The notes under the pieces were generated by a model. It was not told where the DNA came from and made no database searches. It saw only the letters and a list, made by a program, of their open reading frames with translations. Position numbers and translations under genes: made by a program. Below, one piece after another: positions 19,352-26,107 of a stretch of DNA of 64,000 nucleotides. This DNA comes from Desulfobacterales bacterium (GTDB taxonomy: Bacteria; Desulfobacterota; Desulfobacteria; Desulfobacterales; UBA5852): NCBI GenBank assembly GCA_963674755.2, contig CAXXVS010000003.1, positions 928,001 through 992,000 on the forward strand, written 5' to 3'. Position 1 is the stretch's first letter, and each line of letters begins with the position of its first letter.

Positions 19352-19888
19352 TCAGACGCCCCAAAAGGCGATGATCACAAACGCCAGGCAGGCCGCGCAT
19401 ACCGTGTGGCTTACGACGCCTTTTTTAAGGGGATGGAAATGCGCTTCGTTGCGCCGATGACCGTCCGGGCAGATATATTCCACGACTGTCCGGCCGCTGC
19501 GCTTGGACACGTGGCGGATCCGCCTGACCGGCGCGCCGCAGAAACCGTGCGCGTCCTTTGAGCGGGCCTGACAGGTCATGCGGTTGCCCGCGACGAGGCT
19601 GGTCAGGTTGTAGATCCAGTTCCAGGTGATGGCCCCGATCAGAAGCGTGAGCAGTATGATGATGACATGGCGCTGGGTGACCCCCAGGGACGATAGGGAA
19701 GCGCCAATATTGGCGGGGGTCAGGGGGCCTTCCACCGTTCCGAAAAGCCCCAGGTAATAAAGGAAGAAGCTGACCCCCATGACGATCAGGGTCAGGCCGA
19801 AGTTGTGCAGACGGCTACGCGCGAAGCCATGGGAAGGCCGGCCGGTTCCGGTCGTATCCATCGTCGGGGGGGGATATGATTTGCTCAT
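19352..19888 (-). CDS. Hypothetical membrane protein with a Cys/His-rich loop
   Basis: AGGAG RBS before ATG 19888; three hydrophobic segments; loop with C...C...CPDGH. Confidence 0.7.
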   Translation of the reverse strand: MSKSYPPPTMDTTGTGRPSHGFARSRLHNFGLTLIVMGVSFFLYYLGLFGTVEGPLTPANIGASLSSLGVTQRHVIIILLTLLIGAITWNWIYNLTSLVAGNRMTCQARSKDAHGFCGAPVRRIRHVSKRSGRTVVEYICPDGHRRNEAHFHPLKKGVVSHTVCAACLAFVIIAFWGV

Positions 19889-19930
19889 CGCGGGGCATCT
19901 CCTGTTTGGTCTCAAGGGCGTGGATCAAAT

Positions 19931-22460: not shown

Positions 22461-23747
22461 CTACGGTTCCCCGGCCAGGTGTGCGGCAATTGCGCGAAAG
22501 ACGGCGAGCGATTCGGATGCCATTTCTGTTCCGATCTGCAGGTCATCGGCATCGGCCGAGGTCTTGACGATCACCACGCGATGGCGCGGATGAATGTAGA
22601 TGAACTGGCCGCCAATCCCCATGGCGTAATAGTCTCCCTCGGGAGGGTCCGGCAGCCACCACTGGTAGCCGTATCGCTGGGAAGGCCGGGATGTCGTGTT
22701 GGCGCTCCTCGGCTTCGGGTGCGGGTGGTCGGGGGCCACCGAAGCCCGGACCCAGTGGGCCGGGAGGATCTGCTGACCGCGGAAATTTCGCCCCGCATTT
22801 AAGAAGAGAAGTCCGAAACGGGCATAATCCCGAAGGCTGGCATTGAGGCCGCCGAAGGCCATTTCCATGCCGCTATCATCCACCAGCCAAAAGGCATCCG
22901 CCTCGACCCCCAAGCGGGACCACAGCTTCTCCTCCATATAGGTGCTCAGGCTACGCCCGGTAGCCTCCCGCAGCACCATGGCCAACACTTGCGCATCCAT
23001 GCTCACCATGCCATGGGCTTTACCCGGCGGTCGGATCCGGCGGGTGGCGACAACGATATCATCCATGACGGTACCCCAGGCGATGGAACGCCACACGCGG
23101 TTGATGTCCGATGCGAGCCGGGCATAATTTTCGTCGAAAACGATCCCCGAGGACATTTGCAAGGCGTCCTGCAACGTGACCCCGGCATACCCGGAGATGT
23201 TCAGCAGCGGAACATAGTCGTTGACCAGGTCGGTCGTGCTGCGGAGCAGCCCTTCCTCCAGGGCGCAGCCCGCAAGGGCCGTGATGACGGGATGACTTGC
23301 GGACCAGGCCACCCAATGGGTGCGGGCGTCGTTTCCCCGGTAATAGCGTTCGAAGGCGATCGCCCCGTCGTGCACGACAATAAGGCCGCTGGTGGTGGTG
23401 GCCGCAATCCATCCCGTCAGGTCATGCGCGCTTCCCATGTAGACGTAGGATTCGGGGAGGGGCTTGTTGTTGTAAGGCAGCCGGTAGGTCGGTCCGCTGC
23501 GGCGTACGGTCGTATAATCCCAAACACGGGTCATGCTCCTGAAGTTTTCGACAATCGCGGAGGGCTGAAAGAGTGTGAGGACGAAATGGAGGCGAAAGAG
23601 ATCCTTTTTCAAAAGCTGGGAGACGCCCAACAGGACGAGCAGGACGACGCCGATGGTGAAGCCGATTTTACGCCATATGGGGTTTTGGAAAGCGACCACG
23701 CTTGGACTCCCGGCCCGGACGATTCCGGAAGCGTATCGGCCGGGCAA
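22461..23747 (-). CDS. Beta-lactamase-fold serine hydrolase (NylB/class C-like), catalytic motifs degenerate; start uncertain
   Basis: N-terminal TM; GLIVVHDG...FERY, LQMSSG, YMEEKLWSRLG, RDYARFG, YGYQWW, AMGIGGQFIYI; SxxK reads SASH. Confidence 0.85.
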   Translation of the reverse strand: MPGRYASGIVRAGSPSVVAFQNPIWRKIGFTIGVVLLVLLGVSQLLKKDLFRLHFVLTLFQPSAIVENFRSMTRVWDYTTVRRSGPTYRLPYNNKPLPESYVYMGSAHDLTGWIAATTTSGLIVVHDGAIAFERYYRGNDARTHWVAWSASHPVITALAGCALEEGLLRSTTDLVNDYVPLLNISGYAGVTLQDALQMSSGIVFDENYARLASDINRVWRSIAWGTVMDDIVVATRRIRPPGKAHGMVSMDAQVLAMVLREATGRSLSTYMEEKLWSRLGVEADAFWLVDDSGMEMAFGGLNASLRDYARFGLLFLNAGRNFRGQQILPAHWVRASVAPDHPHPKPRSANTTSRPSQRYGYQWWLPDPPEGDYYAMGIGGQFIYIHPRHRVVIVKTSADADDLQIGTEMASESLAVFRAIAAHLAGEP

Positions 23748-23918: not shown

Positions 23919-24806
23919 CTACAGTTTGAACTGCTTTTTGAATTCCTCACGGGGAATGATGCCGTCCTCCCGGACGATAAAATCGACATGGTCCAAATCC
24001 ACCAGGCAGTGGGAATGGATGGTCATGGAATAGCTGGTATGCCCTTCCGTCCGATTTTCATGCTTTTCGTGGATGCGGTGGGCGGAGCTGGGTTTATGCG
24101 AGAACTTGAGACTGTTGGCAAAGAGATAAATCGGAATCTTGTTCAAATGGCACAAACCGACAACTTCCGCCGCTCCCAAAGGGCACACGGCCCTGTGATC
24201 CGGGGTGATGGAAATGGTGCCCAGGAAGAACTTGTTGGCTTTGACAATGAAGTTGCTCAGGTTGTACTCGGGGATGACTTGATGGTCGATGTTCTCGCCA
24301 TGGGCCGTCCATATCAGCTTGCGGGTTTTGGTGAAATCCTGCTTCAAAATCAGCACCTCGAAGGGTTTGCCGATCTTGTTGGCTTGGACGAGGGTATCGC
24401 GGATGGACGCGCTGGTGGAGTAGACGATGATGACGTCGTAGCGATCGATGCACTTCAAGCCGCTCACGACCATCTGTTCGCCGATCGTCTTGAGCCGATC
24501 GATCTTGGACGTGAGGGCGCCGACGATTTTGTTCTTGGTGGCTTGGCAGTCGTCACTGTATTGGCCGGTCATCTCCTTTTCGAAATCTTCGATCAGGTGC
24601 ACCAGCGGTGTAACCTGGGGCTCGGTATTTTTAATGGTTTCAACAAGCTCGGTCACCAAAGGCTCCAGCTTCCCGGCCGAACATCTAAGATCCTGGATGG
24701 AGCGGCGAAACGATTCCAGGGCCACCTGGGTTGTACCATGGGTTCCCAGGACGTCGCCGTGGTCACGGAAGAGTTTGAACAGATTTTGACGGTCGATTTC
24801 TTTCAT
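23919..24806 (-). CDS. eIF2B alpha/beta/delta (IF-2B; MtnA/ribose-1,5-bisphosphate isomerase-like) family protein
   Basis: Helical N-domain then Rossmann-like domain (IIVYSTS, VLILKQ, FFLGTISI, IPIYLFANSLKF, DFIVREDG); ATG 24806 overlaps the transporter stop. Confidence 0.75.
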   Translation of the reverse strand: MKEIDRQNLFKLFRDHGDVLGTHGTTQVALESFRRSIQDLRCSAGKLEPLVTELVETIKNTEPQVTPLVHLIEDFEKEMTGQYSDDCQATKNKIVGALTSKIDRLKTIGEQMVVSGLKCIDRYDVIIVYSTSASIRDTLVQANKIGKPFEVLILKQDFTKTRKLIWTAHGENIDHQVIPEYNLSNFIVKANKFFLGTISITPDHRAVCPLGAAEVVGLCHLNKIPIYLFANSLKFSHKPSSAHRIHEKHENRTEGHTSYSMTIHSHCLVDLDHVDFIVREDGIIPREEFKKQFKL

Positions 24807-26107
24807 AATGACACCCATAGATAGACGGATAAAAAGATGGAAGCGACGACCAGTGTGATCAAGGTGATAACGGCACTAACCTTCATGAATTCCAGGAAAC
24901 TGATATTGACGTTGTGCCGTTTGGCCATGCCCACGGAGACGATATTGGCGGAAGCGCCGATCATGGTGAGGTTGCCGCCCAGGCAGGCCCCCAAAGACAA
25001 GGCCCACCAGAGAATGTCGTTCGGAATCGGGTGGGATTCGAGCATGAGTTTGACGATGGGGATCATGGTGATCGTGAAGGGAATGTTGTCCAGGAAACCG
25101 GAGACAATCCCGGAGACCCACAGGACCATCAGCACGATCACGTAAGGGTTGTCCCCGACCCTCAGAAACACGTTGTGGGCAATCCATTCCAGCACGTGTT
25201 TTTCTTCCAGAACCCCCACCAGGATGAACAGGCCGGAAAAAAACAGCAGCGTGGTCCACTCGATTTCCTCCATGAGGTGTTCCACGTCGACGTTGGTAAG
25301 CATGATAAGAAGCATGGCGACGGTCAGCGCCACGACCCCGGGGGACATGCCGGTGATGGTTTGGGTGACGAACAGCAGAATTGCCAGGGCCAGGCAGGAC
25401 AGCCCTTTTGTCAGGAATACGCGGTCAATTTTGGTGGTCAGAAATTCATTGCGGATTTTTTCCAGCAATAGCTGGACGCTGAACAGTTTGGCCAGGTTCG
25501 TGTCGATGGGCCGGAACTTTTCGCGGTTGGTCATCCATAGATAGAGCAGGCCGCCTGCGAAACACACGGCTACGGGAAGACCCAGGTTCAAAACGAAGGC
25601 GTTGAAGGTCAGCCCCACCTTGGAACCGATGATGATGTTCGGGGGGTCACCGATCAGCGTGGCGGTGCCCCCGATGTTGGAAATCACCGCCTGGCTGATG
25701 ACATAGAGCTTGGGATCGAGCCCCATGCCGGTGGTCAGTTCAATGACGATGGGGATGATGATCAGAACGGTGGTGACATTGTCGAGAAAGGCCGACAATA
25801 GGGCCGTCACGACCGAAAAGAAAATGAGAATTTTGAGCGGGCTGCCTTTGGTCAGTTCGGCAATTCGCACCGAAAGCATGGTAAACACGCCGGTGCGCCG
25901 CAGGATGGCCACGATCGTCATCATTCCCAGGAGCAGCATGATGGTTTCCGTATCGATGAAGGCAATCGCTTCACGTTCGTGCACCACATGCAGGATGAGC
26001 AGCACCATCACGCCAAATAGCGCGGCAACGGCCTTGTTGACCAGCTCAAGGGAAATGGCCACATAGACCAGAAGAAATATGATAATTGGGAGAAGAGCCC
26101 CTTCCAT
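24803..26107 (-). CDS. ArsB/NhaD (ion transporter superfamily, SLC13/P-protein-like) permease
   Basis: SAFLDNVTT, SNIGGTATLIGDPPNI, SGFLDNIP, GACLGGNLTMIGASAN; AAGGAG RBS. Confidence 0.92.
   Translation of the reverse strand: MEGALLPIIIFLLVYVAISLELVNKAVAALFGVMVLLILHVVHEREAIAFIDTETIMLLLGMMTIVAILRRTGVFTMLSVRIAELTKGSPLKILIFFSVVTALLSAFLDNVTTVLIIIPIVIELTTGMGLDPKLYVISQAVISNIGGTATLIGDPPNIIIGSKVGLTFNAFVLNLGLPVAVCFAGGLLYLWMTNREKFRPIDTNLAKLFSVQLLLEKIRNEFLTTKIDRVFLTKGLSCLALAILLFVTQTITGMSPGVVALTVAMLLIMLTNVDVEHLMEEIEWTTLLFFSGLFILVGVLEEKHVLEWIAHNVFLRVGDNPYVIVLMVLWVSGIVSGFLDNIPFTITMIPIVKLMLESHPIPNDILWWALSLGACLGGNLTMIGASANIVSVGMAKRHNVNISFLEFMKVSAVITLITLVVASIFLSVYLWVSL

Follow-up and report, generated by a model that had tools for sequence, protein, structure and literature searches.

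Does a bacterial relative of the sugar-phosphate isomerases serve as a cytoplasmic subunit of a membrane transporter? This question is raised by two overlapping genes in a 64,000-nucleotide stretch of a Desulfobacterales genome (contig CAXXVS010000003.1, positions 928,001 to 992,000), referred to here as the window. The upstream gene encodes a permease and the downstream gene encodes a protein of the IF-2B family, hereafter called the partner. The original prediction, made from the letters of the DNA, reported that the stop codon of the first and the start codon of the second share the bases ATGA, and proposed an eIF2B-like ligand sensor acting as a cytoplasmic regulatory subunit of the transporter. 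Both reading frames do lie on the minus strand, and the junction does read ATGA. The reading that we favor, with a probability of about 0.6, is that the partner is a dedicated cytoplasmic subunit, an enzyme-derived module expressed from a two-gene unit, which tunes the permease.

Conservation of the gene pair

A total of 401 genomes of the class were searched with each of the two proteins, and 55 of them carried the IF-2B-like gene. For the partner, 64 of 65 rows were counted, with one continuation piece of a frameshifted copy dropped; for the permease, 63 rows with at least 59% identity were counted, after the removal of one piece of a broken copy and of all rows at or below 43%. The permease was located directly upstream in 61 of the 64 partner places. 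Two of the three unpaired partners were found at contig ends, and the third was a 54-residue fragment. In the opposite direction, the partner followed the permease in 61 of 63 places, with two exceptions, a contig end and a true orphan that has mlaE behind it. Of 25 loci taken from named genomes, which overlap with the class sample and are not independent of it, 22 had upstream DNA, and all 22 contained the permease (one as a fragment). Close relatives of the partner were named Desulfobacteraceae or Desulfobacterales. In the phylum sample, scores within the range of the family were obtained only for the genome of the window and one genome of the same order, and a permease was found nearby in none of the 28 other IF-2B-family loci fetched from that sample.

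A profile search revealed a second, distant clade of partners with about 23% identity. It included 58 metagenome loci, 50 of which had a related permease directly upstream; the remaining eight had no more than 192 bases of upstream DNA, so the linkage was 50/50 wherever upstream DNA was available. Ten proteins of this clade were looked up; four of them (three loci) were named “Candidatus (Ca.) Peregrinibacteria,” and none was assigned to another taxon. We infer the same taxon for the rest of the clade because its 29 permeases formed one branch with a support of 98 on the permease tree, which was a quick IQ-TREE run. The same tree left the two partnered clades unjoined, and thus a single origin of the permeases was not established. 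The spacing of the genes was also conserved: of the 53 non-redundant Desulfobacterota-clade pairs, 45 have the -4 overlap, and 28 of the 29 distant-clade pairs have a gap of at most 20 bases. An ATGA overlap by itself is frequent in operons; its conservation is the part that goes beyond chance. The length of 295 residues given here for the partner is counted from the ATG at 24806. Another possible ATG 12 bases upstream would give a protein of 299 residues, and the relatives keep the ATG of the -4 overlap. A scan for promoters and terminators returned only three and four sites, which corresponds to the chance level.

The partner tree was built with FastTree from 78 proteins, without bootstrap. 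On this tree, both partnered clades and a third clade were split from MtnA, ribose-1,5-bisphosphate isomerase (R15Pi), and the aIF2B-type proteins by a long branch with a support of 100. The third clade (P0192, P0198–P0200, P0203, P0213–P0215, P0217–P0219, P0221, P0222, P0234, P0239, and P0250) belongs to the same non-catalytic family and is nested with the Peregrinibacteria clade; two of its clusters are named Bdellovibrionales and Dadabacteria. It keeps the arginine of the RP motif (12/12 in alignment A9) and the SHD motif, and searches with it (alignment A9) gave no match in viral contigs.

No third gene was shared with the pair beyond local synteny in either partnered clade, and the neighbors were of no use as a clue to the substrate, with a Mrp/NADH-oxidoreductase subunit at 4 of 45 loci and Kup at 3 of 45, too few to rely on. 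ESM Atlas returned generic names only, and no plasmid match was found for the partner. No permease–partner fusion was scored among 5646 longer candidates (574–2000 residues), which is weak evidence; the candidate P0181 runs from the end of the permease to the start of the partner through an out-of-register stretch, looks like frameshift read-through, and was not accepted as a fusion. The correlation between the pairwise identities of the two proteins (0.77) was not used as evidence, since adjacent genes share their history anyway. On these counts, it is practically certain that the permease and the partner form a linked pair, and the co-occurrence that the original prediction had put forward as a check bears it out. 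The pair is a real and widespread two-gene module that is apparently undescribed: the prediction knew of no characterized example, and literature searches, which covered few subscription papers, found no description.

Several copies of the pair differ from the usual arrangement. The genome of the window also holds a paralogous pair (L034:8724–10927, G000:C3; 64% and 41% identity), again with an ATGA overlap. On one side of it are ATP-grasp genes and a lysine-2,3-aminomutase-like gene and on the other a histone-deacetylase-family/GNAT fusion gene, and these flanks did not recur among the shared neighbors of other loci. In one genus, the pair is duplicated in tandem about 2.5–2.8 kb apart (L035, L036, and L037 in G048, G026, and G044, respectively), and in G044 the second copy runs past the contig end. 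Second or sole copies broken by stops, frameshift, or truncation were found in G117:C91, G230:C14, and L076. At some loci of the Peregrinibacteria clade, genes resembling those of proline biosynthesis are located within 6 kb of the pair (L180, L184, L188, L192, L193, L197, L207, and L215), including a glutamate-kinase-like gene at 8 of 58 loci; this may be lineage synteny only.

The permease, its linker helix, and the predicted complex

The Pfam search matched the permease to CitMHS (E 5.9e-82; 275.9 bits against a cut-off of 31.9) and to ArsB (E 1.2e-8). Its AlphaFold2 (AF2) model, with a predicted local distance difference test score (pLDDT) of 85.7, had ArsB 10tp as the best Foldseek match (template modeling score, TM, 0.82), and the match to NaCT reached TM 0.81. 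The CitMHS score and these two structural matches place it in the ion transporter (IT) superfamily, with an inverted repeat and two re-entrant hairpins; the hairpin motifs are DNVTT, GDPPN, DNIP, and GASAN. The best NCBIfam match was MamN (E 4.5e-52), yet its score of 177 is far from the 500 needed. The scores for ArsB (84.6 against 457) and NhaD (57.8 against 577, and 42.2 against 80) were also far below the cut-offs. Thus, the “ArsB/NhaD permease” of the original prediction was right in its fold, and the protein is neither ArsB nor NhaD proper.

In ArsB, proton coupling is ascribed to Asp112 and Asp148 in the available text of PMC13381914. These residues align with Val111 and Asn144 of the permease. 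Among the 82 non-redundant paired proteins over which residue counts are given here, position 111 is Val or Ala in all and position 144 is Asp in two. Three other aspartates, Asp109, Asp154, and Asp340, adjoin the hairpin asparagines. The loss of the ArsB aspartates and the position of these three suggest cation coupling or cation exchange. No ars genes were present among the neighbors common to related loci. Rather than an arsenite pump, the permease most likely represents an ion carrier coupled to Na+ or H+.

The linker of the permease (residues 200–228), which aligns with the cytoplasmic linker of ArsB, carries a hydrophobic helix conserved in both partnered clades. In the alignment inspected, this helix was lacking in 21 unpartnered relatives, 13 of which had a shorter, more charged helix. 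In the model of the permease alone, its confidence was low (pLDDT 67–75). The helix was singled out before the result of the complex prediction.

The complex of the permease and the partner was predicted at 1:1 from two 82-row alignments in three runs, with three controls. The runs scored 0.72, 0.71, and 0.72 and agreed in 100% of contacts, with a partner pLDDT of at least 82, whereas the best of the controls scored 0.00. Of 157 solved complexes, 116 reach the score mark used, as do 2 of 215 mismatched pairs, and this calibration is only rough for the alignments made here. The predicted interface consists of permease residues 87, 127, 129, and 202–224 and partner residues 1–57 and 162, and it coincides with the linker helix picked out beforehand. 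In the partner, conservation was higher in the interface columns, at 0.59 and 0.51, than in the remainder of the N-terminal domain, at 0.49 and 0.40, respectively. Among the Protein Data Bank (PDB) matches listed for either chain, none is given as a complex of this kind, which makes it unlikely that the predictor passed the pair by reproducing a known structure. The cytoplasmic subunit postulated from the sequence thus finds support in a model in which the partner docks on a cytoplasmic helix, and a physical association of the two proteins appears likely.

The orphan permease (L109:2576–3928, G379) overlaps mlaE and has an intact reading frame. It falls inside the partnered clade, where its branch is long (0.38, against 0.097 for its sister), and it departs from the consensus at 7 of 13 conserved linker positions, compared with 18 of 198 positions elsewhere. 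A profile search did not find the partner in this genome, which is 86% complete.

The sister permeases, with 38–43% identity, include proteins with an N-terminal extension of about 150–200 residues that starts with a signal-like segment (L110–L113, L115–L118, L122, L123, and L125–L127); in the two that were scanned, no Pfam match covered the extension. USP or CBS genes come next after several of these extended permeases. Among 14 ORFs scanned downstream of unpartnered sister permeases, USP (four) or CBS (two) genes were found, which suggests that different modules fill the slot.

Table 1. Positions of the two genes and of their main features in the window.
Feature	Position	Strand	Remarks
IT-superfamily (ArsB/NhaD/DASS-fold) permease, 434 residues	24803..26107	-	MamN-like, below cut-off
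eIF2B-alpha/beta/delta-fold protein (partner), 295 residues	23919..24806	-	without catalytic residues; Pfam and structural match
ATGA stop/start overlap	24803..24806	-	permease stop over the start of the partner
Hydrophobic cytoplasmic linker helix, permease residues 202–224	25436..25504	-	specific to partnered permeases; predicted docking site
N-terminal helical bundle, partner residues 1–57	24636..24806	-	predicted grip on the linker helix: L12, A29, S32, F33, S36, L54
VYSTS, partner residues 128–132	24411..24425	-	Ser130 at the catalytic Cys position; Ser132 (5-phosphate ligand) kept
LGTIS, partner residues 195–199	24210..24224	-	Ile198 at the position of the catalytic, sugar-binding Asp; L/V/I/M in 82/82
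Lys234 of the partner	24105..24107	-	5-phosphate lysine of R15Pi and eIF2B-alpha; K/R in 64/82, H in 16/82
Ser-His-(Asp/Cys) motif, partner residues 265–267	24006..24014	-	replaces AFD of R15Pi/MtnA; Ser in 82/82, His in 80/82

Two further genes of the window were recorded. A beta-lactamase-family serine hydrolase (22461–23747) lies on the same minus strand 171 bases downstream of the partner and is not among the neighbors common to related loci. The other gene (19352–19915, minus strand) codes for a membrane protein of 187 residues that has paired Cys motifs and matched nothing in Pfam; it is flanked by genes for a TauE exporter and a Cache/PAS histidine kinase.

The ligand site of the partner

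The partner matched Pfam IF-2B (PF01008) with an E-value of 3.5e-17 and 63 bits, against a cut-off of 22.4, and is built of an N-terminal bundle of helices plus a Rossmann-like domain. Its AF2 model (pLDDT 93.5) was compared by VIA-align with archaeal aIF2B 1vb5 (Z 29.5; root mean square deviation 2.9 over 273) and R15Pi 5yfx (Z 28.5; 2.9 over 284), which agrees with membership in the superfamily. The dN/dS values of 0.09–0.14 in five comparisons showed that it is under purifying selection.

The roles of the residues were taken from the available part of PMC5789824 together with a profile alignment to PH0208, and their mapping reflects alignment of sequences rather than the pocket geometry of the model. 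VYSTS aligned with THCHS of R15Pi and LGTIS with its GADS. The original prediction had pointed out that the catalytic Cys and Asp are missing from these two stretches and concluded that catalysis was lost. This holds for all aligned members of the family: Cys within residues 128–132 and Asp or Glu within 197–199 were each found in 0 of 82 proteins, and the catalytic residues did not realign elsewhere in the sequence. Of the outcomes that the original prediction named as counting against it, neither such a realignment nor a lack of conservation of the pair was seen. The equivalents of Asn214 and Lys215 of R15Pi were also absent from all 82. With Arg22 kept in 1/82 and Arg65 in 7/82 (mostly Glu or Gln instead), little is left of the 1-phosphate ligands, to which Lys215 also belongs. 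Judging from the aligned residues, the partner is almost certainly non-catalytic for the known isomerase reactions. The 5-phosphate subsite had a different fate, as Gly21, Ser/Thr132, and Lys/Arg/His234 occurred together in 74 of 82 proteins (His, found in 16 rows, was counted). The remodeled catalytic loop varies between the clades; position 130 is Ser or Thr in one and mostly Asp in the other, and the distant clade often carries a HDHSH stretch there. Within the Desulfobacterota group, neither the SHD motif nor the phosphate lysine is left in a fast-evolving subclade (P0163, P0190, P0206, and P0216).

The nature of a possible ligand was also considered. In the available text of PMC8187479, E198 and N208 of eIF2B-alpha separate sugar-phosphate binders from non-binders: no binding of fructose 6-phosphate (F6P) to the beta and delta subunits was observed, and the N208Y substitution in alpha abolished it. 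The statement of the original prediction that the regulatory subunits of eIF2B bind sugar phosphates is therefore correct for alpha and does not extend to beta and delta. The equivalents of these two sugar-ring ligands were each found in 0 of 82 partner proteins. Because both are absent, sensing of sugar phosphates in the manner of eIF2B-alpha appears doubtful on the alignment, and the ligand proposed in the original prediction is weakened.

Mode of action, rival explanations, and known systems

The partner would be made together with the permease from the two-gene unit. Its N-terminal helix bundle is predicted to grip the hydrophobic linker helix between the transporter halves and also to contact the cytoplasmic end of hairpin 1 of the permease (helix 110–127). 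As described in the available part of PMC6423476, the C-terminal domains of R15Pi form a rigid oligomer, and the N-terminal domain alone moves, closing on ligand binding. A closure of this type in the partner would exert a pull on the linker that connects one half of an elevator carrier with the other. Because the N-terminal domain of R15Pi swings shut on its ligand, the most likely function is that the occupancy or protonation state of the partner cleft shifts the linker and thereby tunes the elevator movement. That the partner regulates transport is probable; control of transport by a ligand through the cleft is a more tentative proposal, with somewhat less than an even chance. The signal is probably not a sugar phosphate of the eIF2B-alpha type. 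Our leading guess is that the surviving 5-phosphate subsite holds a small anion or a mono-phosphorylated metabolite; pH sensing by way of the conserved histidines, or operation without a ligand, is also conceivable.

Several observations weigh against a regulatory subunit of this kind. In the permease, conservation at the interface does not exceed that of the remaining positions (0.79 vs. 0.80 and 0.57 vs. 0.63). The complex score is a measure of model confidence, and, according to the description of the tool, 7 of 44 blindly chosen neighboring genes also passed; moreover, both folds usually oligomerize, and the model contains one copy of each protein. The partner diverges much faster than the permease, with a mean identity of 0.42 against 0.71. 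The orphan is also ambiguous, since with a genome 86% complete the partner could be unassembled, and the linker of L070, a permease that has its partner, deviates at 6 of 13 positions, almost as many as in the orphan. Finally, the cleft residues vary between the clades and Lys234 is replaced by His in 16 of 82 proteins, which argues against one common ligand.

The best surviving alternative is that the partner is a structural or assembly subunit only, which binds the linker for folding, stability, or constitutive activity and senses nothing, its cleft being a relic. Nearly all ligand-binding side chains are gone, and the degenerate subclade does without even the SHD motif. The linker helix is hydrophobic and poorly predicted in the lone permease, and the stop/start overlap fits a fixed stoichiometry. 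However, the three residues of the 5-phosphate subsite are kept together across clades at 23% identity, and Ser265 and His266 are new and nearly invariant; both they and the subsite residues lie outside the predicted interface. The orphan permease, in turn, keeps its reading frame intact without a partner. We regard a purely structural role as unlikely.

It is less probable still that the partner is an enzyme with a new chemistry, or a substrate handler tethered to the permease, with channeling as in ArsA/ArsD or metal or cation binding via Glu62, His266, and Asp267. The cleft is remodeled rather than randomized, in that the conserved Arg became mostly Glu or Gln and the SH(D) motif is new, the HDHSH stretch is frequent at the catalytic loop of the distant clade, and ArsB pairs with the cytoplasmic ArsA (available text of PMC13381914). 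Yet Ser265 and His266 are the only side chains fit for catalysis that are nearly invariant in both clades, position 130 itself changes from one clade to the other, and no co-occurring pathway gene was found among the neighbors. An equally small probability is given to a sensor of sugar phosphates, or of AMP or GMP, that would tie the carbon or energy state to the transporter like eIF2B-alpha. The phosphate lysine and serine are kept, and eIF2B-alpha likewise has no 1-phosphate site and still binds F6P, but the missing E198 and N208 equivalents are the very loss that marks the non-binding beta and delta subunits, and a change at N208 alone abolishes binding in alpha (both in the available part of PMC8187479). 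The least probable reading, that the genes are co-inherited without interacting and the complex score is a false pass, could draw on neighboring genes that sometimes pass the mark and on the lack of a genuine fusion (weak evidence), but it does not account for the strict two-way linkage across distant phyla or for a partner-specific helix, identified independently, that proved to be the predicted interface while all three controls scored 0.00.

The ligand-gated reading, if true, would describe the first dedicated small-molecule-sensing subunit of the IF-2B fold on a transporter, common to Desulfobacterales, the ultra-small Peregrinibacteria, and perhaps the third clade including Bdellovibrionales. 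A grip by the partner from inside the cell would add a new mode of control for transporters of this kind. Since JGI names many members of the partner family “translation initiation factor 2B subunit,” a misannotation in bacteria, which have no eIF2, a concrete and testable role is offered here for a misannotated family. The ligand of the partner, if found, could reveal the cargo of these uncharacterized permeases.

Comparison with known systems outlined what is particular to the pair. Among the enzymes, R15Pi (PH0208, TK0185) and MtnA share the two-domain fold with the partner, and their G23, S137, and K240 equivalents are kept; the equivalents of Cys135, Asp204, Asn214, and Lys215 are absent throughout, and the two arginines nearly so. 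The partner scored 19.9 against an NCBIfam cut-off of 314 for R15Pi/MtnA, and the genome of the window has a separate, much higher-scoring IF-2B-family gene (E 7.5e-64), probably its genuine MtnA; an assignment to R15Pi/MtnA was thus rejected. Archaeal aIF2B (PH0440, 1VB5; PRK08335), which also lacks the catalytic Cys and binds aIF2-alpha (as reviewed in the available text of PMC4787765), is the best match of the partner in both sequence and structure. However, the aIF2B-type proteins retain GAD, NKxG, and ExRP, whereas the motifs of the partner differ, and they lie on the far side of the long FastTree branch. With a PRK08335 score of 39.7 against 339 (best of 82 members, E 2.6e-21), the partner was not accepted as aIF2B. 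Bacterial aIF2B-like proteins without Cys and with GAD kept (L131–L136) were found in other classes of the phylum, and some of them adjoin histidine-phosphatase-like or NUDIX-like genes, as judged by eye.

On the transporter side, MamN, OCA2 (P protein), and NhaD are among the closest known permeases. The permease has two Asn-bearing hairpin tips, like N442 and N741 of OCA2, and its DN and GASAN motifs presumably resemble those of OCA2 and NhaD; it differs from MamN and NhaD in falling below every cut-off (177 vs. 500; 58 vs. 577). The ArsB–ArsA system combines the same transporter fold, with its linker likewise cytoplasmic, and a cytoplasmic partner. Unlike ArsA, the partner described here is not an ATPase, and whereas AlphaFold3 gave no support for a stable ArsA–ArsB complex, the dock predicted here is confident. 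The ArsA–ArsB contact has resisted modeling, and the pair would point to a cytoplasmic subunit of this fold that is stable and has its docking helix mapped. The same logic is known from transporters with cytoplasmic sensor modules, namely Pho90–SPX, KtrAB, SbtA–SbtB, AmtB–GlnK, and the USP- and CBS-linked carriers, among which Pho90 shares the fold of the permease. To our knowledge, none of them uses an eIF2B-type fold.

A further parallel is eIF2B itself. Its alpha, beta, and delta subunits likewise descend from this enzyme fold, have lost catalysis, and act via protein contacts, and alpha senses sugar phosphates with ring ligands that the partner lacks; the predicted binding mate of the partner is a membrane transporter. 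According to a proposal in the available part of PMC4787765, eIF2B arose when the ligand-driven motion of the enzyme was co-opted to control a bound partner, and the module would be a separate bacterial instance and an independent test case for this origin. It is possible, although we put it at somewhat less than half, that the pair is the bacterial counterpart of the step to eIF2B: a second loss of catalysis in which the anion cleft was kept and ligand-driven closure of the N-terminal domain took on the gating of an ArsB/NhaD/DASS-fold elevator transporter.

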